A stretch of 64,000 nt of DNA, taken from positions 402,842 to 466,841 of the forward strand of contig JBKUYM010000001.1 of NCBI GenBank assembly GCA_046964515.1, given 5' to 3'. The notes below the pieces were generated by a model that did no database searches, was not told the origin of the DNA, and saw only the letters and a program-made list of their open reading frames with translations. Of the stretch, positions 7,591 to 52,395 are shown piece by piece. The first letter of the stretch is position 1. Each line of letters opens with the position of its first letter. Origin of the DNA: Clostridia bacterium. Its GTDB lineage: Bacteria > Bacillota > Clostridia > TANB77 > CAG-508. Position numbers and translations under genes: made by a program.

Positions 7591-7684
7591 AAAACTCATG
7601 AATAATGTTTAGAAAGAAATAGAAGAAAACAAAAACAAAAGTAAGTTATAATGAACCATGAAAATAAACAAAGGAGGAAATAAA

Positions 7685-8365
7685 ATGTACAATAAAGGTA
7701 TTACAATGATAGTTTTAGTGATTACCATCATCATACTAATTATCTTGGCAGGGGTATCTTTAAATCTTACAATAGGAGAAAATGGCATCTTTCAGCAGGC
7801 AAAACAAGCCAAAGAAAATATGCAGTTGGCAAAAATAGAAGAAGAAGAGCAACTCAATCGTACTTATGGTGAAATGATAGCACAACTCGGACCAGGGGAA
7901 AAAGAAGAACTAGAAAATAAACTAGATTCCATAAAGAAGGAATATGATGATTTCAAAAATGAGATAAAAGCTATTCTAATACAAAAAGAAATACCAGTAG
8001 GAGAAGAAGCTTCAAATGAAGAAATGATCAATCATTTAAAAGAGTTGTCAGTAGTAAGAGGGTATGTACAACCATATCTTTATGCCATGAGTTGTGGAGA
8101 CAATAGGCAATTAAATTTTGAGTTTCAATTTGATGTACAAGGATATACGACCTTATATATTGAAAGCTATAGAAATGTGGGGGCATTAACCGTTAATTTT
8201 TATGGGATAAAAGAAGATGGAACAAGTACGAAACTAACAACTTCTATTCCTAAAAAAGAAAATCCACTTCAGGTAGAAGCCTATAAAACAATAAAAATGG
8301 AAGGTGTTTGTGCAAGTAATTCTACGTTTTCACAAATTTATGTATATAATGTTACTGTAAAATAA
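7685..8365 (+). CDS. Pilin-like N-terminus family protein P1 with a beta-rich C-terminal domain
   Basis: N-terminus MYNKG|ITMIVLVITIIILIILAGVSLNLTIGENGIFQQAKQAKEN. AAAGGAGGA RBS before the ATG at 7685; the ORF track extends to 7658. Confidence 0.7.
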   Translation: MYNKGITMIVLVITIIILIILAGVSLNLTIGENGIFQQAKQAKENMQLAKIEEEEQLNRTYGEMIAQLGPGEKEELENKLDSIKKEYDDFKNEIKAILIQKEIPVGEEASNEEMINHLKELSVVRGYVQPYLYAMSCGDNRQLNFEFQFDVQGYTTLYIESYRNVGALTVNFYGIKEDGTSTKLTTSIPKKENPLQVEAYKTIKMEGVCASNSTFSQIYVYNVTVK

Positions 8366-8381
8366 TAATCAATAGGATAAA

Positions 8382-8420
8382 AAGATAGAAGTCATAAAAA
8401 TAAAAACTTCTATCTTTTTA
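8382..8420 (+). terminator. Intrinsic terminator after P1
   Basis: Hairpin aagatagaagt / acttctatctt plus T-run. Confidence 0.6.
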
Positions 8421-8488
8421 CATATTGTAAAATATATAAAATAAGCATATAATAAAAGTAATAAAAAAATAGATAGGAGAAATACAAA

Positions 8489-9608
8489 ATGGAACCATCA
8501 AAAGTATATTTTACAGATTTTCGAGCAAAACCAGGAATGAACTTATTACAAAAATTAAAGAGATTAATAAAGCAAGCAGGTATAGAAACCATAGATTTCA
8601 ACCATAAATTTGTGGCTATTAAAATTCATTTTGGAGAACCAGGAAATTTAGCATATTTAAGACCAAATTATGCTAAAGTAGTAGCAGATTACGTAAAAGA
8701 ATTAGGCGGTATTCCTTTTTTAACAGATTGTAATACCCTTTATGTAGGGAGAAGAAAAAATGCTGTGGACCATATAGACGCTGCTTACGAAAATGGATTT
8801 ACACCGTATGCTACAGGGTGTCAAGTCATCATTGCAGATGGATTAAAAGGAACTGATGATATAGAAGTTCCTGTATCTGGTGAATATGTGAAAAATGCTA
8901 AAATAGGAAGAGCCATTATGGATGCAGATATTATCATTTCCTTAAATCATTTTAAAGGTCATGAATCTACAGGCTTTGGAGGTGCTCTTAAAAATTTAGG
9001 AATGGGATGTGGATCTCGTGCAGGAAAAATGGAAATGCATAGTTCACGGAAAACCGGTACCAGATATCCAAAATTGTGTGGGATGTAAGCAATGTATAAA
9101 ACAATGCGCACATGGTGCTATTTCCTATGATAAAAATGGAAAAGTACAGATAGACCATGAAAAATGTGTGGGGTGTGGTAGATGCATTGGCGTATGCAAT
9201 TTTGATGCCATAGAGCCAGGAGATAATCATTCAAACGATATTTTAAATAAGAAAATTGCAGAATATACCTTAGCAGTTGTAAAGGGAAGACCAAATTTTC
9301 ATATAAATATCATTACCGATGTATCACCAAATTGTGATTGTCATAGTGAAAATGATAGTCCAATCGTACCGAATATAGGCATGCTTGCTTCTTTTGACCC
9401 AGTCGCTTTAGATATGGCGTGTGCTGATTTGGTTAATAAGCAAACACCATTTGCCAATAGTCACATAGGGGATATAGAACATGAGAATGGAACGAAACAT
9501 GCAGATGTTTTTATAAGAAACCATCCAGAGACGAATTGGAAAGTGGGATTAGAACATGCACAAAAAATAGGAATTGGCAATGAACAATACGAATTGAAGA
9601 AAATTTAA
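8489..9608 (+). pseudogene. DUF362-domain protein with two 4Fe-4S ferredoxin motifs, interrupted by a +1 frameshift near 9050
   Basis: Two overlapping ORFs, 8489-9088 and 9009-9608. Together they reconstitute one DUF362/ferredoxin protein: ...GMGCGSRAGKMEMHSS then KPVPDIQNCVGCKQCIKQCAHGAI...CVGCGRCIGVC. The frame changes in an AAAA run at about 9050-9053. It could be a sequencing error, a real pseudogene or a programmed frameshift. Confidence 0.6.
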
Positions 9609-9901
9609 GAAATAAAGATAACAAAAATGATAATAGTTCTCAATTTGAAAAAATGATGCTGGAAAGTATTGAAAATAGACGAATTGAAAAAACTCAAAAA
9701 AGAATTGGAAAAAGCATGAATGATTCTGTAATAATATTGTAACAAAACTGTAATATGATTGTAATACAAAAAACAAAGTCAAGAGTGTCAATACTTGCAT
9801 AAAAAAAATTGCCTAAAAAACATACTAGACAAAAAAGACAAACAAGACAAAACGCTTATATATCAATGAAAAATGGATATATTGACATAACAAAAGGACG
9901 T

Positions 9902-13079: not shown

Positions 13080-14165
13080 ATGAAAACAGAAAAAGGCATT
13101 ACCTTAATATCTTTAGTTATTATAATTATAATCTTGACTATTTTAGTAGGGATTGGTTTAAATGTAACGATAGGAGCAGATGGAATTATTACAAGAGCCA
13201 AGCAAGCAAAACAAAATATCATTTTAGCAGGAGAAGCAGAAGCCATGCAATTAAATCAACTTTACTATGAATTAGAAACAGGGGGAGAATTAACAGAAGA
13301 TGAAGAAAGTAGTAAAAAAGACGAAATTATTAGCTTACTGCAAAAGCAAGTAGAAGACTTACAAAAACAAGTAGCTGTTTTACAGACAGAAAATACCAAT
13401 TTAAAAAAACAAATACAAGAATTAATGGAACAAATAAACCAGTTACAGCAAGAAATAGTAAATTTGAAAGCACAAATAGCTAGTAAAGATATAGAAATAG
13501 CAGAACTAAAAGAACAAGTAAGTGAAAAAGAATTGAAAATTAAAGAACTACAAAATCAATTAAATAGCTTAAATTCTTTATTATCACAGACAAATAGCAC
13601 AGCTGATAAAATTCTATTTGGCTATAAAGCCTATAGTGAAGGAAAATTATTAACAGGAACTATGGTTAATCGAGGAGCGGTAAGTAGTAACTTAAATGCA
13701 GGGCAAAGTTATACTATACCAGCAGGTTATCACAATGGTTCTGGAAAAATAATAGCCAATAACTTAGCCGATCAGACACAAGCAACTGCCGATGCCTCTC
13801 AAATTATACTAGGATATACTGCCTGGGTAAATGGAAATAAATTAACAGGAACCAATAAAGGATATGAAGAAGGCTATAATGCGGGGAAAAACGAAGGAGA
13901 AGCTAGTAGTATAAACAATAGTAAAGTAAGATTGATTTACTATGGACCAAATAATAACTGGTGTATTGCAGGGATTATGATTCCTAATACAGCTACAAAA
14001 GTGTATTGCTCAAATGGGCAGATAACGATATTTAATACTTATGATGACTTAGGACCCTATGCAATAGCTACTTTAAGTAATGGAGACAATGTAGTAAACT
14101 ATAGAGGAAAGATAGCAGGCGTAAGAGTTAATGGACAAAATAATGCATTATTATGGTTTGAATAA
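13080..14165 (+). CDS. Pilin-like N-terminus family protein P2 with a long coiled-coil and a C-terminal beta-rich domain
   Basis: N-terminus MKTEKG|ITLISLVIIIIILTILVGIGLNVTIGADGIITRAKQAKQN. About 100-aa heptad-rich segment (LQKQVEDLQKQVAVLQTEN...). Shares the EDEESxKKDEIIS motif with P4. GGAG RBS. Confidence 0.7.
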   Translation: MKTEKGITLISLVIIIIILTILVGIGLNVTIGADGIITRAKQAKQNIILAGEAEAMQLNQLYYELETGGELTEDEESSKKDEIISLLQKQVEDLQKQVAVLQTENTNLKKQIQELMEQINQLQQEIVNLKAQIASKDIEIAELKEQVSEKELKIKELQNQLNSLNSLLSQTNSTADKILFGYKAYSEGKLLTGTMVNRGAVSSNLNAGQSYTIPAGYHNGSGKIIANNLADQTQATADASQIILGYTAWVNGNKLTGTNKGYEEGYNAGKNEGEASSINNSKVRLIYYGPNNNWCIAGIMIPNTATKVYCSNGQITIFNTYDDLGPYAIATLSNGDNVVNYRGKIAGVRVNGQNNALLWFE

Positions 14166-26011: not shown

Positions 26012-26040
26012 TTGACTTTAACCAAAAGGTAATATAAAAT
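26012..26040 (+). promoter_or_regulatory. Conserved family promoter for P3 (TTGACT-17-TAAAAT, tTATAAAAT extended)
   Basis: tattgactttaaccaaaaggtaatataaaat. Near-identical modules lie upstream of P4, P5 and P6. Confidence 0.55.
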
Positions 26041-26106: not shown

Positions 26107-27831
26107 ATGAAAATAAAACAAAGAGGAATTACTTTAATAGCACTAGTTATTACGATTATTATATTAATTATTTTAGCAGGTGTTAGCATAAATATGGTGA
26201 TAGGAGATAATGGATTAATTCCTAAAGCAACACAGGCAAAAGAAAATATGCAAATAGCTTCAAATGAGGAAGAGGAACAATTAGCAAAATTAACAAATGA
26301 ATTATATAATCCTGAGCAAATAGAAATACGAAAAAATATGCCCAATTCCCCCAAATTAGCAGAAGGAATGCACGCGATTAAGTTTACAAATCCAACTGAA
26401 ATAGATAAAGGAAGAGTAGAAGATACCAATAGTAATGATAGTGACTGGTATAATTATGATGAAAAACGATGGGCTAATAGCCAGACAGAAGATGGAAGTA
26501 TGTGGGTATGGATACCCAGATATGCTTACAGAGTAAACAAAGATAATCAAACCTTTGATATAGTCTTTTTAATAGGAACAACGGATAATTATTATGATGA
26601 GAATGGAAACATACAAACCGCCAAAAGATGTAACAGTGTAGATGAAAATGTAGATACATCTACAGGATATACCGTACATCCAGCTTTTACAGATGAAACA
26701 ATGATAGGTTATAGAAATGGAGGATGGGATAAAGAAATAACAGGAATCTGGGTAGCTAAATTTGAGGCGGGATTTGCTGGTGGAAATAATTTAGCTACTG
26801 TTAAAGAAAGTAGTGTAAGTTATTCACAAAGTACATCTTATGTAGGAGCCGTAGAAAGAGGTCAAAGTAGTAATGGAAATGAAGCTGCTCGTAACTGGTT
26901 GGATGGCATTTATGGAAGTACGAAAACAGCTATAAAATATCCAACCTTCCAAGGAACTACCTACAGTATGAACTATGTTAATCATAATGATGCTTATAAT
27001 ATAGCTAAAGTTATGACAGAAAATGGGAACATATATGGATTAATAGAAAATACAGATTCCCACTTAATGAAAAATAGTGAATGGGGAGTAGTAGCTTACT
27101 TAAGCCAAAGTCAATATGGTTTAAATGGGAGTGATATTGCAATTAATAGTATTAGTTTGAACAGTGGAGGAGCAGCAAGAACGCAGACCGCAGGAAAAAC
27201 AGGAGTAGATAGTGTATATGCTGTAACAGGCTGTACAACAGGGACAAACAATGCAACAGAAAAAGTAACAACGATAGCCAATATTAATAGTACAACAGCT
27301 AACACAGCAGTAGATGGTGTGTACACCTGGAATCAGCTAAATGGAACAAAGGCAAGTAGTAGTGGAACGATTTATGGAATTTATGATTTAAGTGGAGGAA
27401 CTTGGGAAAGAATGGCATCCTATGTGGCTAATGGAAATGAAAACTTAAAAACTTATGGTTCTAGTATAGCTTATGATGGTTCTGTTTTAAAAACAACAAG
27501 TACAAAATATACAACCACTTATCCGTTTGACAGTACAACAGATAATACAGGTATAGTAAGTAATGATACAAATTTAAATACGGCAAGTGTCAATAATTAT
27601 AAGAAAAATACTTTAATTTATGGCGATGGCATCCGCGAGACTTCAGAGATTGGAATTGAAAGTACTAGTTGGTATGGTGGCTATTCACGTTACACAAGCA
27701 TGGCTGGCCCGTTTTCGTTTCGTGGTGGTAACTGGTGGAATGGTTCAAATGCTGGTTTATTTTGCTTTCATTGTCATGCTGGTGATAACAATTATTTTCA
27801 TGGATTCCGTGTGGTACTAGTCATGTCCTAG
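26107..27831 (+). CDS. Pilin-like N-terminus family protein P3 with an FGE-sulfatase (C-type-lectin-fold) C-terminal domain
   Basis: N-terminus MKIKQRG|ITLIALVITIIILIILAGVSINMVIGDNGLIPKATQAKEN. C-terminal motifs SEWGVVAY, GGTWER, RGGNWWNG...GFRVVL, which resemble the FGE-sulfatase/DUF323 signature RGGSW..R...GFR. Paralog of P5. Confidence 0.7.
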   Translation: MKIKQRGITLIALVITIIILIILAGVSINMVIGDNGLIPKATQAKENMQIASNEEEEQLAKLTNELYNPEQIEIRKNMPNSPKLAEGMHAIKFTNPTEIDKGRVEDTNSNDSDWYNYDEKRWANSQTEDGSMWVWIPRYAYRVNKDNQTFDIVFLIGTTDNYYDENGNIQTAKRCNSVDENVDTSTGYTVHPAFTDETMIGYRNGGWDKEITGIWVAKFEAGFAGGNNLATVKESSVSYSQSTSYVGAVERGQSSNGNEAARNWLDGIYGSTKTAIKYPTFQGTTYSMNYVNHNDAYNIAKVMTENGNIYGLIENTDSHLMKNSEWGVVAYLSQSQYGLNGSDIAINSISLNSGGAARTQTAGKTGVDSVYAVTGCTTGTNNATEKVTTIANINSTTANTAVDGVYTWNQLNGTKASSSGTIYGIYDLSGGTWERMASYVANGNENLKTYGSSIAYDGSVLKTTSTKYTTTYPFDSTTDNTGIVSNDTNLNTASVNNYKKNTLIYGDGIRETSEIGIESTSWYGGYSRYTSMAGPFSFRGGNWWNGSNAGLFCFHCHAGDNNYFHGFRVVLVMS

Positions 27832-27894
27832 TAATTTAAAAAATTATGGGAATAGAATAAGTGATAGACTTTAGACGTGTTTCAAATAAAAAAG

Positions 27895-27950
27895 CAAATT
27901 AGAAATAATAGAATTCTAGTTTGTTTTTTTATGCAAACTTGTGAATATTA
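27895..27950 (+). terminator. Intrinsic terminator plus copy C of the recurrent motif
   Basis: caaattagaa...ttctagtttg hairpin, then tttttttATGCAAACTTGTGAATATtag. Confidence 0.5.
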
Positions 27951-28299
27951 GAAGGCTATAGAATTAAATAATATGGAAAATGGAAATATAGATACAGATA
28001 ATGGAGAAGCTATTAAATTTAAAAAAAGTAATAGCTATAGCAGTTAAAAATGAAGCAGTCGGTTGCGACTATTGTGAATTTATTTTGTATAAATTATATT
28101 AGAATAGTATGAACAGTTTATAATATAAAAATAGAAAATCTTTTATTACAAAGGAAAGAGATTTTCTATTTTTTTTAGATGAAAATTTTTAAAAATAGAT
28201 ACGCAGATTTATAGAAGTTCATAAAACCTTAATGAATTGGCTATTTTTTTCTTAAGAAATATATGATATACTAAAGAACATAAGAAAGAGGGGAATCTT

Positions 28300-29007
28300 A
28301 TGTATAATATATTAATTTGTGATGATGATAAGGAAATTGTAAAAGCAATAGAAATCTATTTAAGTAAAGAGGGATACCATATTTTAAAAGCTTATAATGG
28401 AAAACAAGCGTTAGAAATTATGAAGGAACAAGAAATACATTTATTAATTTTAGATATTATGATGCCAGAAATGGATGGAATGACAGTAGCAAATCAGGTT
28501 AGAAAAAGTAGGAAAATACCAATTATCATGTTATCTGCAAAATCAGAAGATTATGATAAAATAGCAGGATTAAATGAAGGAGCAGATGACTATATAACAA
28601 AACCATTTAATCCATTAGAATTAATAGCAAGAGTAAATTCTCAAATTAGAAGATATACTTCTTTAGGTTCTATAGCACAAAATGAAAAAGAAAATCAAAA
28701 TATTTATCAAACAGGAGAATTACGCATAGATGATAATACAAAACAAGTAGTAATAGAAGGAAAAGAAATAAAATTAACACCAACAGAGTACAATATCTTG
28801 AAATTCCTTATAAAAAATAAAGGAAAAGTATATTCAATAGAGCAGATTTATGAAAATGTATGGGAAGATGAAGCTTATGGAGCAGAAAATCTAATAGCCG
28901 TACATATAAGACACATTAGAGAAAAGATAGAAATTAATCCAAGAGACCCAAAATATTTAAAAGTTATTTGGGGGATTGGCTATAAAATTGAAAAAATAGA
29001 GGAATAA
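28300..29007 (+). CDS. OmpR-family two-component response regulator
   Basis: Receiver domain (LICDDD..., D51-like LLILDIMMP, K at ITKPF). C-terminal winged-helix trans_reg_C (..YLKVIWGIGYKI). Confidence 0.85.
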   Translation: MYNILICDDDKEIVKAIEIYLSKEGYHILKAYNGKQALEIMKEQEIHLLILDIMMPEMDGMTVANQVRKSRKIPIIMLSAKSEDYDKIAGLNEGADDYITKPFNPLELIARVNSQIRRYTSLGSIAQNEKENQNIYQTGELRIDDNTKQVVIEGKEIKLTPTEYNILKFLIKNKGKVYSIEQIYENVWEDEAYGAENLIAVHIRHIREKIEINPRDPKYLKVIWGIGYKIEKIEE

Positions 29008-29046
29008 ATAGACTACAAGAGAAATAAAAAGAAGGAGGAAAAATAG

Positions 29047-31077
29047 ATGAAACGAATAAAAGAATCTGCTTTTTTAAAATTAGTATGCTATATAGCTATA
29101 CCTATTTTAGTACTAACACTTCTAATGAGCAGTGTATATCTTTCCTACCAAAGACAAAATGAAGATAATATGCAAGTAAAAGATTATTATCAAACAGATA
29201 CTTTTGTAAATCAATATTATATTGTATTACAAAACATTTATGATTATTTATTATACCCCATAGAAGAAGAAACCGAAAATGAAATCTCCTATTATTATTC
29301 TTACTTTTACGATTACTCTCTTATTAAAGATGGAGAAGAAAAAATATATTATCAAAATGGTGGAAGGATGGGGAATACCACAAAATATTTTGATTATGTT
29401 ATCATAGATAAACAAGAAAATACAATTTATATGAATTTAAGAAATGATGCCTATCAAGAAGAAATCGAAAATATAAAACAAAGACCATATCATTGGTATT
29501 ATGCAGGAACGGATATACAAACAGACATGGCCAAAATGACAGAGCAAAATTTGAAATATGACTATAGTTTAGAATCGATAGACAAGTTAAAAAATAATCG
29601 TTTTGATATCTATTTAGTTTTTAACCAAGATAAAGTAGAAAGTGGCAATGATATCTATATTCAAAAAGTTTTCTATGATTCTATGCTAACGCTAAAAAAT
29701 GTACCAATGTATTTAATTCCTATCTGTGTGGTTTTATTGTTAATAATGGGTATTTATCTTATATGGGCAATAGGTCATCAAAAAGGGATAAAAGGAATTG
29801 CTTTAAATTCTTTAGACAAAACACCTTATGAATTACTTTGCTTTATAGCTTTTTTAGTCTTATTTTTAGTAACAATGGTGGGTACGACATTAAGTAGTGT
29901 AACACGAAATTTCTTAACACTATCTTTTTGGACAATTGATTATTTTATAGGATATATTATCTGTGCAGTAATTGGCGTTACAACAATAAAAAGAATAAAA
30001 GCGAAAGTATTTTTTAGGGAACTATGGATTTCTAAAATAATGCGAAGCATTATAAGACAATGGAAAAAGATAGAAAAAGCATTTAGAGAGCATCCTGCAA
30101 CTACCAAAAAAGTTATCATTGTATATTGGGCGTTTATTTTGATTTCTGTTATTTTAATTGCTTTACAAGGAAGTTTCTTCATGTTTTTAGTCTTAATTGC
30201 TTTTTGGATATGGTGTTTTTACAAAATTTTTAAATATATGAAACACATCGGTCGTATAAAAGAATCTTTAAAAGAGATTTATGAAGGAAAAGAAAATGTA
30301 GTAATAGATACAGAAGACTTAGAAAAAGGCTTGAAAGAAATGGCGGAATATATCAATGATATAGCAAGAGGATTTTCTAATGCTATAGAAAAAAGTTTAA
30401 AAAGTGAAAGAATGAAAACAGAATTGATTACCAATGTATCTCATGATATTAAGACACCACTAACATCTATTATAAACTATGTAGATTTATTAAAAAAAGA
30501 AGAAATGCCAAATGATAGGGCAAGAGAATACTTGGAGGTATTGGATAATAAATCACAAAGACTAAAACGATTAACAGAAGATTTAGTAGAAGCATCAAAA
30601 GCTTCTTCTGGAAATATAAAATTAAATATAGAAAAATTAGATGTAAAAGAATTGATGAAACAAATTTCAGGGGAATTTGAAGATAAATTTCAAGAAAGAA
30701 AATTAGAATTGAATTTATCTGTGCCAGAAGAGGATTGCATAATACAAGCAGATAGTCGTTATTTATATAGAGTAATTGAGAATATGTATGCTAATGTTGT
30801 AAAATATGCTTTAGAAGCTTCTAGAGTTTATGTGGATATAAAATCTGAAGCAAATGTATTACAAATTCAAATTAAAAATGTTTCCAAAGAGAGACTAAAT
30901 ATTACAGCAGATGAATTAATGCAAAGATTTGTAAGAGGAGATAGTTCTAGAAATACAGAAGGAAGCGGTTTAGGACTTTCTATAGCACAAAGTTTAACAG
31001 AATTACAAAAAGGAAGGTTCCAAATCTATATAGATGGAGATTTATTTAAAGTGGTTATAACCTTTGATAAAAGCTAA
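29047..31077 (+). CDS. Sensor histidine kinase with a large N-terminal sensor and multi-TM region
   Basis: HisKA H-box SHDIKTPLTSI. HATPase_c N, G1 and G2 boxes (GSGLGLSIA). Directly downstream of the response regulator. Confidence 0.85.
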   Translation: MKRIKESAFLKLVCYIAIPILVLTLLMSSVYLSYQRQNEDNMQVKDYYQTDTFVNQYYIVLQNIYDYLLYPIEEETENEISYYYSYFYDYSLIKDGEEKIYYQNGGRMGNTTKYFDYVIIDKQENTIYMNLRNDAYQEEIENIKQRPYHWYYAGTDIQTDMAKMTEQNLKYDYSLESIDKLKNNRFDIYLVFNQDKVESGNDIYIQKVFYDSMLTLKNVPMYLIPICVVLLLIMGIYLIWAIGHQKGIKGIALNSLDKTPYELLCFIAFLVLFLVTMVGTTLSSVTRNFLTLSFWTIDYFIGYIICAVIGVTTIKRIKAKVFFRELWISKIMRSIIRQWKKIEKAFREHPATTKKVIIVYWAFILISVILIALQGSFFMFLVLIAFWIWCFYKIFKYMKHIGRIKESLKEIYEGKENVVIDTEDLEKGLKEMAEYINDIARGFSNAIEKSLKSERMKTELITNVSHDIKTPLTSIINYVDLLKKEEMPNDRAREYLEVLDNKSQRLKRLTEDLVEASKASSGNIKLNIEKLDVKELMKQISGEFEDKFQERKLELNLSVPEEDCIIQADSRYLYRVIENMYANVVKYALEASRVYVDIKSEANVLQIQIKNVSKERLNITADELMQRFVRGDSSRNTEGSGLGLSIAQSLTELQKGRFQIYIDGDLFKVVITFDKS

Positions 31078-31155
31078 TATAAAAAAGTGGTTAAAAGAAA
31101 TTAACAAATACGTATTTCTTTTAACCACTTTTTATAATTTATACAATCTAATAGA

Positions 31156-31653
31156 TTAACTAAAAATAGCACCCATAGAACCGAAGACGCCAGCAGAAGC
31201 AAGTCCCATAATAATGCCTGCTAAAATAACACCGGCGATAATGGCAACAACGCTTTTTTTGAAGTCCATATCTAAAAAGCTAGCAGCAAGAGTACCTGTC
31301 CAGGCACCTGTACCAGGAAGTGGTATACCAACAAAAATAAATAAAGCAAAGTATAAACCACGACCAGCAGTTGCTTGTAATTTCTTGCCTCCTTTTTCCC
31401 CTTTTTCTAAACAAAATTTAAAAAACTTACCAATAAATTTTTTATCGGCGCCCCATATTAATACTTTTCTTGCGAAGAAGAATATAATTGGAACAGGAAG
31501 CATATTTCCTAAAATGCAAATAATATAAAGAGGAATAATAGGAAGGGCTTCTCCTAACCAAGGACTAAGTCCAATGGGAATAGCGCCCCTAAGTTCAATT
31601 AGAGGTACCATAGATACTAAAAAAACGACGAAATATTTTAAAAGCATAAGCAA
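31156..31653 (-). CDS. Small multidrug export protein family (Sm_multidrug_ex-like) membrane protein
   Basis: 165 aa. Four TM segments. N-terminal ...PLIELRGAIPIGL... motif typical of COG2426-family proteins. Confidence 0.55.
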   Translation of the reverse strand: MLMLLKYFVVFLVSMVPLIELRGAIPIGLSPWLGEALPIIPLYIICILGNMLPVPIIFFFARKVLIWGADKKFIGKFFKFCLEKGEKGGKKLQATAGRGLYFALFIFVGIPLPGTGAWTGTLAASFLDMDFKKSVVAIIAGVILAGIIMGLASAGVFGSMGAIFS

Positions 31654-31855
31654 ACTCCTTTATCTTTTTATCGAGAATTATTGTACTATAAGGATGGGTA
31701 AAAAGCAAGAGAAAATTAAAATATGCAAAAGGATTGTAGTATAAAATGTCAAAATAGGAATAAAGAGACAAGTAGTATTTTGTCGAAAATCATTGACAAA
31801 TGATTTTTGTTAAACTATGATAAATTTAAGAAATAAAAGGAGACCATAGGGAAAC

Positions 31856-32806
31856 ATGAAAAGGAAATTAGTTGTGATACTTACTGGTATTATTTTGTCC
31901 ATTTCTACTTATTCTTTTGCAGATGTGGGAAGTTTTGACCGCTATGATAGTGGCTCTTCTAGTGATTGGGGATCTAGTTCTTCTTCATCTAGTGATTGGA
32001 GCTCATCTAGTTCTTCTAGTAGCTGGGACGATGATGATGATTATAGTAGACATTCTACGACAACTGGAGTGGGGATAAATGGTATAGAGATTCTAGGTGT
32101 ATTTGTATTTATGGCGATTGCCTATGTGTATATGATACAGAAATCTGCTAAAGACAAAAGAAAGAGAAGAAATATACCTTATACATCTAATAATTCTGCA
32201 AATAGGCCAATTATAGCAGATATTAATCAAGAAGCTTCAAATAGAAATGCAGAAAAAATACAACAAATAGACCCATTATTTTCTGAACAAAGGTTTATTG
32301 CTTGGAGCAAAGAGTTGTTTATAAAATTGCAAAATGCTTGGACAAAAAGAGATTGGGAACCCATAAGACCTTTGGAAACAGAGATATTATTTGAACTACA
32401 TCTTGCACAGATACAAGATTATATAGAAAGTAATCGTATTAATGTGATAGACAGAATTAGTATAACTTATGCTTACATTTATGCATTCAGACAAGACAAT
32501 GGTAAAGATATTATAGAAGTTGCTTTAAAATCAGTTATGAAAGATTATGTGATAGATGCTACCACTAAAGAAGTTGTGGAAGGTAATAAAGAAGCAGATA
32601 GAGGAAATTTATATAGATTAACTTTTGAAAGAACAAGTGGCGTAAAAACGATGAAAGAGGTAGAAAGCATAAGGACAATGAACTGTCCAAATTGTGGAGC
32701 ACCGACACAAATTACTTCTTCAGGAAAATGTGATTATTGTGGAAGTGTTATTACAACTAGAGACTATGGCTGGGTATTAGCTAATTTAGAACCATTTAGA
32801 AGATAA
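31856..32806 (+). CDS. Membrane protein with a Ser/Asp-rich low-complexity linker and a C-terminal CxxC..CxxC zinc ribbon (Tim44-like architecture)
   Basis: Signal sequence. DSGSSSDWGSSSSSSSDWSSSSSSSSWDDDDD low-complexity run. TM segment. Alpha/beta domain. NCPNCGAPTQ...CDYCGS at the end. Confidence 0.5.
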   Translation: MKRKLVVILTGIILSISTYSFADVGSFDRYDSGSSSDWGSSSSSSSDWSSSSSSSSWDDDDDYSRHSTTTGVGINGIEILGVFVFMAIAYVYMIQKSAKDKRKRRNIPYTSNNSANRPIIADINQEASNRNAEKIQQIDPLFSEQRFIAWSKELFIKLQNAWTKRDWEPIRPLETEILFELHLAQIQDYIESNRINVIDRISITYAYIYAFRQDNGKDIIEVALKSVMKDYVIDATTKEVVEGNKEADRGNLYRLTFERTSGVKTMKEVESIRTMNCPNCGAPTQITSSGKCDYCGSVITTRDYGWVLANLEPFRR

Positions 32807-32825
32807 ATATAAGGAGGAAAAAAAG

Positions 32826-34019
32826 ATGGGACTTATTAAAGCCGCTACAAGCGCAATTGGAAGTACAATGCATGATCAATGGAAAGAAGTTATTCGCTGT
32901 GAGAATATGACAAATGATGTTTTAATGGTAAAACAAACAACACCAACAGGGGTGATTACCAATAAAAGTACAATTATTGTAGCACCAGGACAATGTGCCA
33001 TTATTTATGATAATGGAAAAGTAATGGATGCTACTGCAGAGGAGGGAATCTATACATTTGATACTTCTTCATCACCATCTTTTTTTGCTGGTCAATTTGG
33101 AGCAGTATTTAAAGAAATGTGGCAAAGATTTACCTATGATGGCGCTAGTGCAAAACAACAAGCTGTTTTTTTCTTCAATATAAAAGAAATTGTAGATAAT
33201 AAATTTGGAACAGCCACGCCGATTCCTTTTCAAGATTGGTCTCATCCGATACCTAACCAGATGACCAATATGATAACCCCTTTAAGTGTACAAATTAAAT
33301 GTTATGGAACTTATACTTTCTTTATAGAAAATCCGGCTTTATTTATGATTAAATTAGCTGGTACAGCACAAATATACAAGAAACAACAGTTAACAGAACA
33401 ATTAAGAAGCGAGGTTATGGCAGTATTTCAAAATATAGTTAACGAATTAGGGGATAGCAAACATAAAATACCTGTTTTAGAAATGCCAAGCCAAACAGAT
33501 GAAATTAGAGAAATGATGGATGAAAAAGTTTTTGATGAACCAATAAGACAAAGAGGACTTAAAATTAATTGTTTCGCTGTAGAATCTGTAACCTTAGATG
33601 AAGAATCTAAACAAAAAATAGATGATTATGAATTAAGTTCTAATAGCTATATGCAACAAGGCAAAATGGTGGGGGCTTATTCAGAAGCTATTAAAAGTGC
33701 TGCTGAAAATCAAACAGGTAGTATGAATGGATTTATGGGAATCGGCATGATGAATATGGCAACAGGAAATATAGTAGGTAATGCGACAACTAGTTCTTGG
33801 CAACCTACAGAAAACAGTCATAAGGATTTACAAGAAGAAACAAAAACACAACAACCAGACGAATGGAATTGTATTTGTGGTGCACAAAAGCAAAGAGGAA
33901 AATTTTGTATGCAATGTGGTAAGAAAAAGCCAGAAGAAAAACAATGTCCAACCTGTAAGAATAAAGTGCCAGAGGATGCTAAATTCTGTAGTCATTGTGG
34001 CAATCCATTAAAGAACTAA
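32826..34019 (+). CDS. SPFH/band-7-like domain protein with C-terminal tandem zinc ribbons
   Basis: N-terminal MGLIKAATSAIGS...VAPGQCAIIYDNGKV typical of the SPFH 'virion core protein-like' family. C-terminus has CICGA...CMQCG...CPTCKN...CSHCGN. Its RBS is 12 nt downstream of the stop of 31856-32806. Confidence 0.55.
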   Translation: MGLIKAATSAIGSTMHDQWKEVIRCENMTNDVLMVKQTTPTGVITNKSTIIVAPGQCAIIYDNGKVMDATAEEGIYTFDTSSSPSFFAGQFGAVFKEMWQRFTYDGASAKQQAVFFFNIKEIVDNKFGTATPIPFQDWSHPIPNQMTNMITPLSVQIKCYGTYTFFIENPALFMIKLAGTAQIYKKQQLTEQLRSEVMAVFQNIVNELGDSKHKIPVLEMPSQTDEIREMMDEKVFDEPIRQRGLKINCFAVESVTLDEESKQKIDDYELSSNSYMQQGKMVGAYSEAIKSAAENQTGSMNGFMGIGMMNMATGNIVGNATTSSWQPTENSHKDLQEETKTQQPDEWNCICGAQKQRGKFCMQCGKKKPEEKQCPTCKNKVPEDAKFCSHCGNPLKN

Positions 34020-34027
34020 ATAAATCC

Positions 34028-34062
34028 CACCTTATTCATTAAAATAAGGTGGGATTTGTTAT
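34028..34062. terminator. Bidirectional intrinsic terminator between the convergent genes 32826-34019 and 34086-34820
   Basis: aaatcccacctta-ttcattaaaa-taaggtgggattt, a perfect 13-bp stem. Confidence 0.65.
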
Positions 34063-34085
34063 TGTTTTGGAAAGGGAGTGCCTTT

Positions 34086-34820
34086 TTATATACCAAATAC
34101 AGTTATAATATTATAAGCATTAGGAACCACGTTCGTACGATTTGCATATAAAGTAACCGTTTTTCCTTTTAAATTTTTTGTATCATATTTTACTAAATAT
34201 ACTTTATTAGAAAAAGTAGAATAATCTATATAATCAAGTGGTGTAGCATCTACCGAAAGTTTTAATTGTGAGGTATAACTAGAAGTAAACCAATTTCCAT
34301 TTGTTAGTAAATAAAGGGTATCTTTGGTTACCGCGAAATCAACAGAGGTAGTGTTGGAACTAAAATTATAATTGGCATAATAAACAGATAAATCACCGCC
34401 AGCTATATTTTGTATGTTTTGAGCCATAACTTGAGCACTATCAGTGTAGGCAGTAGAAATTCCCTTATTTGTAATTGCTTGTGCAATAGTTGTTCTAAAT
34501 TGTGTGAATTCTGTTTGAAGGGTAAGAAATTTATTTTGTAAATCTGTTAAATCTTTTTGTAGATTAGAGATAATTTCATCCTTTTTATGGGATTCTTCAT
34601 CTTCTGCAATTTCACCATTAGATACTAACTCATCATAAAGTTGGTTTAATGCAATAGCCTCTGTTTGACTAGCCAAAGTGATATTTTCTTTTGCCTGTTT
34701 TGCTTTTGTGATAATGCCATTATCGCCAACTAATGTATTGATACTTACACCTGCTAAAATAATTAATATAATAATGGTTATTACTAAACTGACTAAGGTA
34801 ATACCAGATTTTTCTCTCAT
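34086..34820 (-). CDS. Pilin-like N-terminus family protein P4 with a coiled-coil and a beta-rich C-terminal domain
   Basis: N-terminus MREKSG|ITLVSLVITIIILIILAGVSINTLVGDNGIITKAKQAKEN. Its first ~45 aa and 5' flank are ~95% nt-identical to P6. Shares the EDEESHKKDEIIS motif with P2. Confidence 0.7.
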   Translation of the reverse strand: MREKSGITLVSLVITIIILIILAGVSINTLVGDNGIITKAKQAKENITLASQTEAIALNQLYDELVSNGEIAEDEESHKKDEIISNLQKDLTDLQNKFLTLQTEFTQFRTTIAQAITNKGISTAYTDSAQVMAQNIQNIAGGDLSVYYANYNFSSNTTSVDFAVTKDTLYLLTNGNWFTSSYTSQLKLSVDATPLDYIDYSTFSNKVYLVKYDTKNLKGKTVTLYANRTNVVPNAYNIITVFGI

Positions 34821-34962
34821 TTATCATCCCTCTTTTTCTTATGTTTTCCCGTTTTTTTAATTTAATACTTTTCTTAGATAATTCTATATTACCAATCGGT
34901 TAATGTCAATGCCTTATTTTTGGATATTTTTCTTAATTTTAGATGCGATTTCTATAAAAATA
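34735..34962 (-). repeat. Inverted repeat arm 1: conserved promoter, leader and 5' coding module of the family; partner at 52168-52395
   Basis: The reverse complement aligns to 52168-52395 at about 95% identity over about 230 nt. Confidence 0.7.
34881..34909 (-). promoter_or_regulatory. Conserved family promoter for P4 (minus strand)
   Basis: On the minus strand it reads ttgacattaaccgattggtaatatagaat. Confidence 0.55.
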
Positions 34963-35439
34963 GAATATAGAAAAGAAGGTGGAAAGACAATACACTTTAT
35001 GTAATGTTTAGAACTATATAATATATATCCATAGAAAATGACAGATACCGTTAATGAAAGATTGAATGAATTATGGCAACAGCAGATTTTTCAAAAGATT
35101 TATTCAAATAAATTCAAGAATTGATTTTAAGGTGATGATTTATCACAAAAAGTAAAGAGTATGGAAATAAATATAAGAAGTGTAATGTAGATATTTAAGA
35201 AGTTGTAATGAAAATATTAAAATAAATAGACTTTAAAAATGCATTTAATACAGTGTTTTTTATAAATATTAAGATAAAGGCTCCATTGAGAATGAAAAGT
35301 TATCTCAAATTGGAACTCTTTTTAACATCTTTCTGATTGATAGACATATCAATGATTATGACTATTTGTATTCACAAGATAACATAAAAAGAATTGAAGA
35401 AATAAAGAATGAAAAGGAAAATAGAAAAATAAAAGAAGA

Positions 35440-35468
35440 TTGACATTAACCAAAAGGTAATATAAAAT
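35440..35468 (+). promoter_or_regulatory. Conserved family promoter for P5
   Basis: gattgacattaaccaaaaggtaatataaaat, followed by the ggaaaacataagaaaaaaagaaggggag leader. Confidence 0.55.
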
Positions 35469-35526
35469 TATCGTATAAGAAAATATAAAAATGGAAAACA
35501 TAAGAAAAAAAGAAGGGGAGATAAGC

Positions 35527-37257
35527 ATGAGAGAAAAAGTAAACCAAAAGGGTATTACATTAATAGCATTAGTGATTACAATTATCGTATTAATCATTTT
35601 AGCAGGTGTAGCCATTAATACTTTAGTAGGAGAGAATGGGATTATTACACAAGCACAAAGAGCGAAAAATGAAACCGCACAAGGGCAAAAAGAAGAAGCA
35701 GGAGGATTAGCTAGTTTAGAACAACAAATAGATGAGGCAACTGGAAAAACGTATATAACAGAAAAGGGCGTTAATAAACCACGATTAGCAACAGGAATGA
35801 AAGCCATCAAATTTACAAATCCAAGTGAAAGTGCTAAAGGAGAAGCACAAGACAGTAGCGAAAATGATACGGAATGGTATGATTATAATAGTAAAAAGTG
35901 GGCGAATAGCCAGACAGAAGATGGAAGTATGTGGGTATGGATACCTAGATATGCGTATAAAGTAAATGATAATCAAACCTTTGATATAAAGTTTTTAATA
36001 GGAACAACGGATAATTATTATGATGAAAATGGACAAATACAAACAGCCAAAAGATGTAACAGTGTAGATGAAAATGTAGATACAACAACAGGATATACGG
36101 TGCATCCAGCTTTTACAGATGAAACAGCGATAAGTTATAGAAATGGAGGATGGGATAAAGAGCTAACTGGAATATGGGTAGCAAAATTCGAAGCAGGATA
36201 TGCTAGTGGAAATAATAGCGCAACAGTTAAGGCAAGTAGTGTTAGCTATTCACAAAACACTTCTAGTGTAAGAGGAGTAGAAAGAGGACAAAGTACGGAA
36301 GGGAGTGAATTGTCTCGTAACTGGTTAGATGGAATATATGGAAGTACAAATACAGCTATAAAATATCCAACCTTCCAAGGAACCACGTATAGTATGAATT
36401 ATATCAATCAAAATGATGCTTATAATATAGCCAAGGCTATGACAGAGAGTGGAAATATTTATGGATTAACTGCAAGTGCAGACTCCCACTTAATGAAAAA
36501 TAGTGAATGGGGTGCAGTAGCATACTTAAGTCAAAGTAAATATGGATTAAATGGAACAGATATTGCGATTAATAATGTTAACTTAAACAGTGGAGGAGTA
36601 GCAAGAACGCAGACAGCAGGAAAAAGTGGTGTAGATAGTGTATATGCTATAACCGGATGTACAACAGGAACAAATAATGGAGCGGAAAAAGTAACAACAA
36701 TTGCCAATATTAATGGTACAACAGCTAATACAGCAGTAGACGGTGTATATACATGGAATCAGTTAAGTGGAACAAAGGCTAGTTCATCAGGTACTATATA
36801 TGGAATTTATGATTTAAGCGGAGGACTATGGGAAAGAACAGCAGCTTATGTAGCTAATGAAAATGAAAATTTAAAAACTTATGGTTCTAGTATAGCTTAT
36901 GATGGTTCTACTTTAAAAACAACAAGTACAAAATATACAACAGCTTATCCATTTGATAGCACTATAGATAATACTAGTATTATAAATAATGATACAAATT
37001 TAAATACGGCAAGTGCCAACAATTATAAGAAAGATACTTCAATCTATGGCGACGGTATCCAAGAGACTTCAATAACCGGAACTGGAAATACTAGTTGGTA
37101 TGGTGACTACTCGTATTACACAGGCTTAAATAATCCATTCTCACTTCGTGGCGGTTATTTCTGGCATGGATCAGGTGCTGGTTTGTTCTATTTCCATCGC
37201 AGTCCTGGTGGCAGCGGTTACGGTGGCGGGTTCCGCACGGTGCTGGCTGTGTCCTAG
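35527..37257 (+). CDS. Pilin-like N-terminus family protein P5 with an FGE-sulfatase (C-type-lectin-fold) C-terminal domain
   Basis: N-terminus MREKVNQKG|ITLIALVITIIVLIILAGVAINTLVGENGIITQAQRAKNE. C-terminal motifs SEWGAVAY, GGLWER, RGGYFWHG...GFRTVL. Internal Met after a GAAGGGGAG RBS; the ORF track extends to 35491. About 75% identity to P3. Confidence 0.7.
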   Translation: MREKVNQKGITLIALVITIIVLIILAGVAINTLVGENGIITQAQRAKNETAQGQKEEAGGLASLEQQIDEATGKTYITEKGVNKPRLATGMKAIKFTNPSESAKGEAQDSSENDTEWYDYNSKKWANSQTEDGSMWVWIPRYAYKVNDNQTFDIKFLIGTTDNYYDENGQIQTAKRCNSVDENVDTTTGYTVHPAFTDETAISYRNGGWDKELTGIWVAKFEAGYASGNNSATVKASSVSYSQNTSSVRGVERGQSTEGSELSRNWLDGIYGSTNTAIKYPTFQGTTYSMNYINQNDAYNIAKAMTESGNIYGLTASADSHLMKNSEWGAVAYLSQSKYGLNGTDIAINNVNLNSGGVARTQTAGKSGVDSVYAITGCTTGTNNGAEKVTTIANINGTTANTAVDGVYTWNQLSGTKASSSGTIYGIYDLSGGLWERTAAYVANENENLKTYGSSIAYDGSTLKTTSTKYTTAYPFDSTIDNTSIINNDTNLNTASANNYKKDTSIYGDGIQETSITGTGNTSWYGDYSYYTGLNNPFSLRGGYFWHGSGAGLFYFHRSPGGSGYGGGFRTVLAVS

Positions 37258-52167: not shown

Positions 52168-52395
52168 TTTTTTATAGAAATCGCATCTAAAAATAAGAAA
52201 GATATTCAAAAATAAGGCATTGACATTAACCGATTGGTAATATAAAATTATCTAAGAAAAGTATTAAATTAAAAAAACGGGAAAACATAAGAAAAAGAGG
52301 GATGATAAATGAGAGAAAAATCTGGTATTACCTTAGTCAGTTTAGTAATAACCATTATTGTATTACTGATTTTAGCAGGAATTAGTATCAATACA
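52168..52395 (+). repeat. Inverted repeat arm 2; partner at 34735-34962
   Basis: About 95% identity to the reverse complement of arm 1, covering promoter, leader and the first ~85 nt of the CDS. Confidence 0.7.
52220..52248 (+). promoter_or_regulatory. Conserved family promoter for P6
   Basis: cattgacattaaccgattggtaatataaaat. Confidence 0.55.

Follow-up and report, generated by a model that had tools for sequence, protein, structure and literature searches.

Two paralogous, pilin-like anchored proteins of a Clostridia bacterium as probable variable proteins of the diversity-generating retroelement class

A stretch of 64,000 nucleotides from a Clostridia bacterium (contig JBKUYM010000001.1, positions 402,842 to 466,841; called the window below) carries two similar genes, P3 and P5, each joining a pilin-like N-terminus to a large C-terminal domain. 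What do two such proteins do in a region made up of housekeeping genes? An original prediction, made from the sequence alone, saw in the C-terminal domain the fold shared by the formylglycine-generating enzyme (FGE) and C-type lectins, called the fusion unusual, and pointed to the genes as long direct repeats. Our analysis indicates that P3 and P5 are probably paralogous cell-surface ligand-binding proteins of the variable-protein class of diversity-generating retroelements (DGRs), most likely orphaned former targets. The following features of the two genes are used in the argument, with coordinates in the window.

26012-26040, + strand: promoter-like site of P3, TTGACT-17-TAAAAT, within the duplicated upstream segment
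26107-27831, + strand: P3 coding sequence, 574 residues, identical by exact-sequence look-up to protein ACLS95_02090 of the NCBI metagenome-assembled genome (MAG)
26107-26190, + strand: pilin-like class-III-type signal of P3, leader MKIKQRG, then helix ITLIALVITIIILIILAGVSI; residue +5 is Ala
26191-26331, + strand: conserved polar helical stalk of P3 (GxNGIIxKAxQAKEN...) and variable linker
26332-27828, + strand: P3 ectodomain, residues 76-574, modelled as one FGE-subtype C-type-lectin-fold unit with insertions
27694-27828, + strand: variable-region-like segment of P3, last 45 codons, RGGNWWNGSNAGLFCFHCHAGDNNYFHGFRVVLVMS; adenine 18%, GC 43%
35440-35468, + strand: promoter-like site of P5, TTGACA-17-TAAAAT, within the duplicated upstream segment
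35527-37257, + strand: P5 coding sequence, 576 residues, identical by exact-sequence look-up to MAG protein ACLS95_02125
37120-37254, + strand: variable-region-like segment of P5, last 45 codons; adenine 13%, GC 54%

An AlphaFold model of residues 76-574, built with about 50 more divergent homologues added and the N-terminal helix dropped, reaches a predicted local distance difference test score (pLDDT) of 89.5 and a predicted template modelling score (pTM) of 0.92, and it shows the FGE-type fold. The only significant Foldseek match of this model in the PDB is TaqVP, the DGR variable protein of Thermus aquaticus (E 6e-8). In BFVD the model matches a SUMF-like phage protein and tail-collar fibres. 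Pfam family PF03781 itself has no match at E <= 10 in P3, P5 or 58 family members. Three distant phmmer relatives (E <= 1e-45) do match PF03781, in segments that can be aligned to P3; P0355 scores 43.9, P0440 42.6 and P0392 28.6 bits, the cutoff being 23.3. The confident model, its match to TaqVP and the PF03781-positive relatives show that the predicted FGE/C-type-lectin fold was correctly assigned. As judged from the model and the alignments, residues 76-574 of P3, and likewise the ectodomain of P5, form one FGE-subtype C-type-lectin unit of about 500 residues with insertions.

The catalytic Cys pair of human FGE is Cys336 and Cys341. The P3/P5 family has no conserved pair of this kind, as expected from the original prediction that the domain is probably non-catalytic. 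The two C-terminal Cys of P3 lie in columns that are hypervariable or mostly occupied by other residues (column 130: A 14, Y 12, C 8; column 133: R 44, C 2), and P5 has no Cys there. What corresponds to the FGE active site is in fact the hypervariable region of P3 and P5. A family-profile search of the PDB sequences returned no FGE. When the family alignment was compared with human SUMF1 by hhalign, IYGIYDLSGGTWERT was paired with GYGLYNIVGNAWEWT, a GNxWEW-like motif, at a probability of only 6%.

In the solved DGR variable proteins TaqVP, TvpA and Mtd, the C-terminal variable region (VR) is the binding surface (PMC6328139). The terminal RGG...GFR of P3 and P5 sits where these proteins carry it (PMC6328139). 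Reading this motif only as a feature of FGE overlooked a DGR-type VR, and with it homologues that are bona fide DGR targets. We searched 79 homologous loci for reverse transcriptases (RTs) and for sequences that repeat the 3′ end of the family gene. Three of them, L068, L060 and L032, are textbook DGR targets with a template repeat (TR); coordinates are those of each locus.

L068, 5962-7632: target; TR at 7967-8121, 335 nt downstream, 90% identical to the last ~150 nt, with 11 of 15 mismatches at TR adenines
L068, 3964-5157, - strand: RT (RVT_1, E 7e-18)
L068, 5112-5477, - strand: bAvd (PF22296, E 6e-21)
L060, 5989-7734: target; TR at 7906-8062, with 16 of 17 mismatches at TR adenines; no RT within 6 kb
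L032, 5980-7761: target; TR at 8405-8540, with 11 of 11 and 15 of 15 mismatches at TR adenines for two VRs
L032, 7888-8151: second VR-like copy, between the target stop and the TR (15 of 15 mismatches at TR adenines)
L032, 8855-9979, - strand: RT

The TR lies within 0.2-0.8 kb of the target stop in all three active loci, and their targets have the same pilin-like N-terminus as P3 and P5. L068 alone has a complete bAvd-RT cassette; it adjoins truB, showing that this cassette is chromosomal. Since all mismatches of the second copy in L032 fall at TR adenines, one TR apparently serves two VRs there, one of which appears to lie outside a full-length gene. L032 is also the only active locus with a GC-rich hairpin downstream of the VR (8-bp stem, GTAA loop). 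The VR/TR pair of L060 (7594-8062), having no RT within 6 kb, indicates that target and TR are separable from the RT in this lineage; a PD-(D/E)XK transposase gene (8701-9714) lies just downstream of the pair. The RT homologue search showed the DGR RT family to be very abundant in gut Clostridia.

In base composition the 3′ ends of P3 and P5 match the active VRs. Outside the last 135 nt adenine makes up 41% of both genes, and GC is 34% in P3 and 35% in P5. The active VRs of L060, L068 and L032 contain 10-17% adenine, and the composition of the last 135 nt of P5 is indistinguishable from theirs. The 3′ end of P5 is GC-rich (GGGTTCCGCACGGTGCTGGCTGTGTCC), and no GC-rich hairpin lies downstream of P3 or P5. 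In 56 genes of the family, an entropy of about 3 bits or more (2.9-3.5) is reached by some 14 C-terminal columns. In these columns 88-100% of the residues can be derived from AAY codons by adenine changes and 57-93% of the codons are NNY; variable columns farther upstream fall as low as 48-57% and 12-39%, respectively. By analogy with the solved proteins, the ~14 hypervariable positions would form the ligand-binding face of P3 and P5.

Whether P3 and P5 are still being rewritten is a separate question. A third copy of either 3′ end, as a TR would be, was not found in the 64-kb window by blastn at word size 7, and a YxDD scan together with Pfam searches of all substantial open reading frames (ORFs) found there no YxDD/RVT_1 ORF and no bAvd. 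The VRs of P3 and P5 differ at many synonymous, non-adenine positions, and therefore the two cannot share one TR. Synonymous divergence between the two genes is in fact highest in the VR, at 0.43-0.71 against 0.11-0.36 elsewhere. A similar picture is given by P0008, a relative 90% identical to P5. The last ~125 residues hold 37 of the 57 amino-acid differences between them, and synonymous differences occur within the VR too, so that no single TR can account for both. This relative (L082, 10001-11731) lies in a polysaccharide-biosynthesis cluster (glycosyltransferase/dTDP-rhamnose) of another strain and is not syntenic with P5. Synonymous differences between this relative and P5 are unevenly spread over the gene, from 0 to 12 per 50 codons, a pattern that suggests mosaicism, gene conversion or past recombination among paralogs. 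The lack of a TR and an RT in the window and the synonymous differences between the VRs make P3 and P5 most likely orphan or remote targets. The VR of P3 appears to be drifting toward the AT bias of the genome. That of P5 was probably orphaned recently, or else, with a small probability, is still served in trans.

The N-terminus bears on how such a domain would be presented. P3 starts with MKIKQRG/ITLIALVITIIILIILAGVSIN, a 7-residue basic leader with a terminal Gly before a hydrophobic helix, an arrangement resembling class III (prepilin) signals. P5 starts with MREKVNQKG/ITLIALVITIIVLIILAGVAI, which likewise has a basic leader with a terminal Gly and a hydrophobic helix of about 20 residues. 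Export and anchoring of both proteins are predicted to proceed via this pilin-like N-terminus. A full-length AlphaFold model of P3, from 58 sequences at 59-79% identity, places helices at residues 4-32 and 37-66 with low confidence (pLDDT 48). Pfam N_methyl gives 15.0 bits on P3 and 14.4 on P5, below the cutoff of 21.2, and matches 50 of 58 family members below threshold (best E 4.5e-4). NCBIfam matches are weak, and the family-profile search of the PDB sequences finds only weak matches to pilin N-termini (geopilin, MshA). Glu at +5 is absent from all seven window proteins with this module, which have Ala, Ser or Val instead. The pilin-type N-terminus of the original prediction is thus pilin-like by inspection, but it misses the Pfam threshold and lacks Glu5.

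Besides P3 and P5, five further genes of the window begin with the common pilin-like module of about 60 residues (polar segment GxNGIITKAKQAKEN), and their C-termini are unrelated to P3 and P5.

7658-8365, + strand: further module-bearing gene
13080-14165, + strand: further module-bearing gene
34086-34820, - strand: further module-bearing gene
52309-53130, + strand: further module-bearing gene
58295-60196, + strand: further module-bearing gene, 633 residues

The pattern across these genes is KGITLIALVITIIILIILAGVSIN..G.NGIITKAKQAKEN. Its occurrence on five other genes marks it as a module that this organism uses generally for display or anchoring, and seven such genes scattered in 64 kb amid housekeeping genes suggest a lineage-specific surface-display system. 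A prepilin peptidase or pilus-assembly gene was not found within the window by Pfam. The products of 13080-14165 and 34086-34820 have an additional common segment past the module, EDEES.KKDEIIS.LQK, followed by coiled-coil, and may be another small paralog group. The product of 58295-60196 has a weak fn3 match and no Pfam family; it contains four copies of GGGCYTxPVYHxH and then four of CGKTAGSTIxSYxLxCGK, making it Cys-rich.

The fusion of such an N-terminus to a lectin-fold domain is not unusual, contrary to the original prediction. Modular pilins with lectin, vWA or adhesin modules are widespread and are thought to occupy filament tips (PMC8179133). Cellular DGR targets usually consist of an N-terminal transmembrane segment and a C-terminal C-type lectin domain (PMC8144416). 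The rare target domains listed for DGRs include a G-type pilin domain (PMC11661182). In the literature searched, no paper joins DGRs with prepilin or modular-pilin terms.

The similarity between P3 and P5 is homology, not chance. BLASTP gives 427 identities in 574 residues over the full length (74%, close to the 75% predicted), and the DNA is 81% identical across 1,736 nt, about 100 nt of which lie upstream. The genes have the same orientation and their starts are 9,419-9,429 nt (about 9.43 kb) apart, in agreement with the predicted direct repeats spaced by about 9.4 kb. The predicted length of P3, 574 residues, is right, whereas P5, taken as 577, has 576 residues in the NCBI record, or 588 when an in-frame upstream ATG at 35491 is used. 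A 44-nt string quoted as present in both genes is exact only in P5 (35902-35945); the longest perfect run in common is 41 nt, ending at 26516. The protein motifs NSEWG(V/A)VAY, SGG(T/L)WER and C-terminal RGG...GFR(V/T)VL were confirmed in both. Because the promoter-like site is kept in both copies, each looks like an independently transcribed gene, apparently with a conserved sigma-70-like promoter of its own. The copies are separated by a block, 28300-34820, of six genes unrelated to them.

28300-29007: response regulator
29047-31077: histidine kinase
31156-31653, - strand: small membrane protein
31856-32806: Tim44-like protein
32826-34019: SPFH/zinc-ribbon protein
34086-34820, - strand: small pilin-like-anchored protein (also listed above)

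Two independent ENA assemblies of the same strain, L001 and L002, both stop at about 31200-31300, within the gene for the small membrane protein. The strain also occurs in the samples from which ENA assemblies ERZ28585165 and ERZ27234009 were made.

How firmly can P3 and P5 be regarded as orphaned targets? In Treponema denticola, targets occur remote from the cassette and also in isolates that have neither RT nor TR, which gives the orphan reading a precedent (PMC4891356). Several points weigh against it. The VR of P5 is in composition as fresh as the active ones, and the search for TR and RT covered the 64 kb of the window only. The restriction to AAY-derivable residues is to some extent confounded with amino-acid composition. 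We infer surface display and ligand binding as well as the processing of the pilin-like signal, and PF03781 and PF07963 stay below threshold on P3 and P5 themselves. The three assemblies in which P3 is identical all represent one strain (99.987% over 7.8 kb), so this identity says little against ongoing diversification. Alternatively, P5, or with lower probability P3, might be an active target diversified in trans by an RT and TR elsewhere in the genome or on a prophage, a reading to which we assign a minor share of the likelihood. The adenine-poor, GC-rich end of P5 resembles the active VRs; in L060 more than 6 kb separates the target and TR from any RT, T. denticola is known to have remote targets (PMC4891356), and RTs of this family abound in gut Clostridia. 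Still, no TR adjoins P3 or P5 as it does in the three active loci, and the VRs of P3, P5 and P0008 allow no common TR. The source MAG is not named among the best 120 RT homologues, which is weak evidence. The P5 VR skeleton, scanned as IUPAC patterns, had 0 matches in JGI metagenomes (two scans) and in IMG/VR, collections from which the strain seems to be absent.

The nature of the anchor and of the repeats allows further explanations. P3 and P5 could be true modular type IV pilins, cleaved by prepilin peptidase and displayed at a filament tip with the lectin-fold module as adhesin. This is compatible with a DGR-type domain and is a plausible reading, although the evidence taken together leans against it. 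The basic leader ending in Gly, the following ITLIALV... with its hydrophobic helix, the N_methyl matches below threshold in most of the family and the exclusively pilin N-termini retrieved from the PDB all point this way. So do the name 'type II secretion system protein' given to one member by PGAP, the spread of lectin and vWA modular pilins (PMC8179133) and the G-type pilin domains of rare DGR targets (PMC11661182). The loss of Glu5 would fit a tip position, as for GspK; at the same time its absence from all seven module proteins counts against a pilin, as do the missed Pfam gathering score, the weak NCBIfam matches and the lack of prepilin peptidase and pilus-assembly genes in the window. 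No pilin head domain is visible, the full-length model being poor, and seven genes dispersed among housekeeping genes suit a generic signal-anchor equally well. That P3 and P5 matter mainly as direct repeats driving deletion or amplification of the intervening block is possible in principle but very improbable. Their common orientation, length of 1.7 kb, 81% identity and perfect runs of up to 41 nt would favor such events, and the patchy synonymous divergence of P5 from P0008 and of P3 from P5 may reflect earlier recombination or gene conversion in the family. However, homologous recombination is strongly reduced between sequences that diverge by 19%. Over about 7.8 kb, from 2.6 kb upstream of P3 to about 31.2-31.3 kb, L001 and L002 are 99.987% identical to the window, showing that the block is not rearranged on its P3 side within the reach of those contigs. 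A search of 82 loci for a deletion allele between the repeats found no syntenic locus of another strain. Finally, the idea of a catalytic FGE/EgtB/PvdO-type enzyme, such as a surface-exported sulfatase-maturating or sulfoxide-synthase-like one, deserves almost no credence. In structure the domain comes closest to a DGR variable protein and not to an enzyme, the equivalent of the active site is hypervariable, PF03781 matches 0 of 58 members, and FGE activity is also judged improbable for TaqVP and TvpA (PMC6328139). We rejected this candidate on the absence of the conserved Cys pair.

P3 and P5, presented as a pair in the original prediction, are not a distinctive one. The source MAG, in which both lie on a 550-kb contig, has at least six paralogs (ACLS95_00650, ACLS95_02090 or P3, ACLS95_02125 or P5, ACLS95_02245, ACLS95_02370 and ACLS95_08720), and MAG CATXTS01 has at least 12 family copies. 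A word-indexed search found more than 4,798 homologues, none of them with a precomputed Pfam domain; where named, they are called 'hypothetical protein', with the single type II secretion exception given above. Clustered at 50% identity, the matches of an exhaustive phmmer run with the ectodomain form 3,021 clusters for E <= 1e-3 and 341 for E <= 1e-30. They come from uncultured Clostridia of human, Hadza, rabbit and sheep gut. The architecture is thus already known, and the family is large and unannotated. For the specific claim of the original prediction the outcome is mostly deflationary: the fold was right, the architecture is known and the pair is not special. Among the relatives are giant proteins (P0295, P0355, P0392 and P0440) with three to five tandem P3-like ectodomain units and immunoglobulin-like or Listeria-Bacteroides repeat domains; P0295, of 4,340 residues, has five units in tandem.

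In fold and in the place of the VR, P3 and P5 come nearest to TaqVP, TvpA and Mtd among known proteins. Differences from the known systems were observed. TvpA is a lipoprotein and, unlike P3 and P5, is not pilin-like anchored. It is Treponema denticola variable protein 1 (PDB 2Y3C), comes from another phylum, and has no HMMER-detectable similarity to P3 and P5. TaqVP (PDB 5VF4; PMC6328139) is about 20% identical to P3 and P5; it has 381 residues without a pilin-like N-terminus, and the P3/P5 ectodomain is about 120 residues longer, with extra insertions. TaqVP has a cognate TR and RT, neither of which is present for P3 and P5 in the 64 kb. Mtd belongs to Bordetella phage BPP-1 (PDB 1YU0), whereas P3 and P5 are chromosomal, amid rpoB and a two-component system, and membrane- or pilin-anchored. 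From the PF03781 proteins (human SUMF1/SUMF2, PvdO, EgtB and the non-catalytic PorK/GldK), P3, P5 and 58 relatives differ in missing the profile and in lacking the catalytic residues. PilB (vWA) and PilC (lectin) of Streptococcus sanguinis share with P3 and P5 a monoderm host, a class-III-type signal, a hydrophobic helix and a bulky ligand-binding module (PMC8179133, PMC9934059). Those two have canonical class III signals and a pilus locus, and a vWA or concanavalin-type lectin module; P3 and P5 lack Glu5, are sub-threshold in Pfam, have no pilus genes nearby, and carry a DGR-type C-type lectin module. The type V pilus adhesins of Bacteroides (bioRxiv 10.1101/2024.11.15.621889) are also DGR-diversified, adhesive, pilus-associated surface proteins of the gut. 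They are from Bacteroidota and have an unrelated N-terminus, and their DGR diversification is reported, while here it is deduced, and for the homologues only.

The window has about 30% GC. Pfam searches of all substantial ORFs identified metK, nrdD, spoIIE, tatD, rpoB, rpoC, gdpP, rplI, dnaB, a tilS-like gene, ftsH and a penicillin-binding protein gene, and scans of the 64 kb for tRNA and Rfam families gave no matches. A prophage tail fibre was also considered for P3 and P5 and was rejected in view of the housekeeping surroundings and the membrane anchor. Elsewhere in the window, a DUF362/4Fe-4S gene is broken into overlapping ORFs in different frames, 8489-9088 and 9009-9608 (+ strand), which could reflect a frameshift, a pseudogene or an assembly error.

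A simple scheme can be proposed for the origin of P3 and P5 as orphaned targets. At the homologous loci, a cassette of bAvd, RT and TR would rewrite the last segment of about 45 residues by adenine-specific mutagenic retrohoming. P3 and P5 still bear the signature of this process: their 3′ ends are poor in adenine and rich in GC for a genome of 30% GC, and the residues encoded there are AAY-reachable. They would now stand in a fixed repertoire of at least six paralogs with different binding faces, which would evolve by duplication, ordinary mutation and probably recombination. Each gene would be expressed from its own promoter, and the anchor would either place the protein at the tip of a type IV filament or simply hold it in the membrane.

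A wider and more speculative proposal, which we regard as rather unlikely in its full form, is that uncultured gut Clostridia display DGR-diversified C-type lectin adhesins on pilin-like anchors and archive them as 6-12 or more fixed paralogs. One or a few live loci, with target, TR and bAvd-RT, would create new binding faces. By duplication or recombination these faces would reach separately promoted orphan loci, P3 and P5 among them, and P5 might still be rewritten in trans. If true, this would amount to a germline-like repertoire of surface receptors.

The assignment of the family to the DGR variable proteins gives it a testable function, surface ligand recognition through a defined hypervariable face. 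Being large and unannotated, the family is useful to recognise. It can serve as a marker for DGR targets that escape the standard TR/VR-based pipelines because their TR is absent or remote. P3, P5 and their relatives also illustrate how diversity written by DGRs may persist as fixed paralog repertoires.

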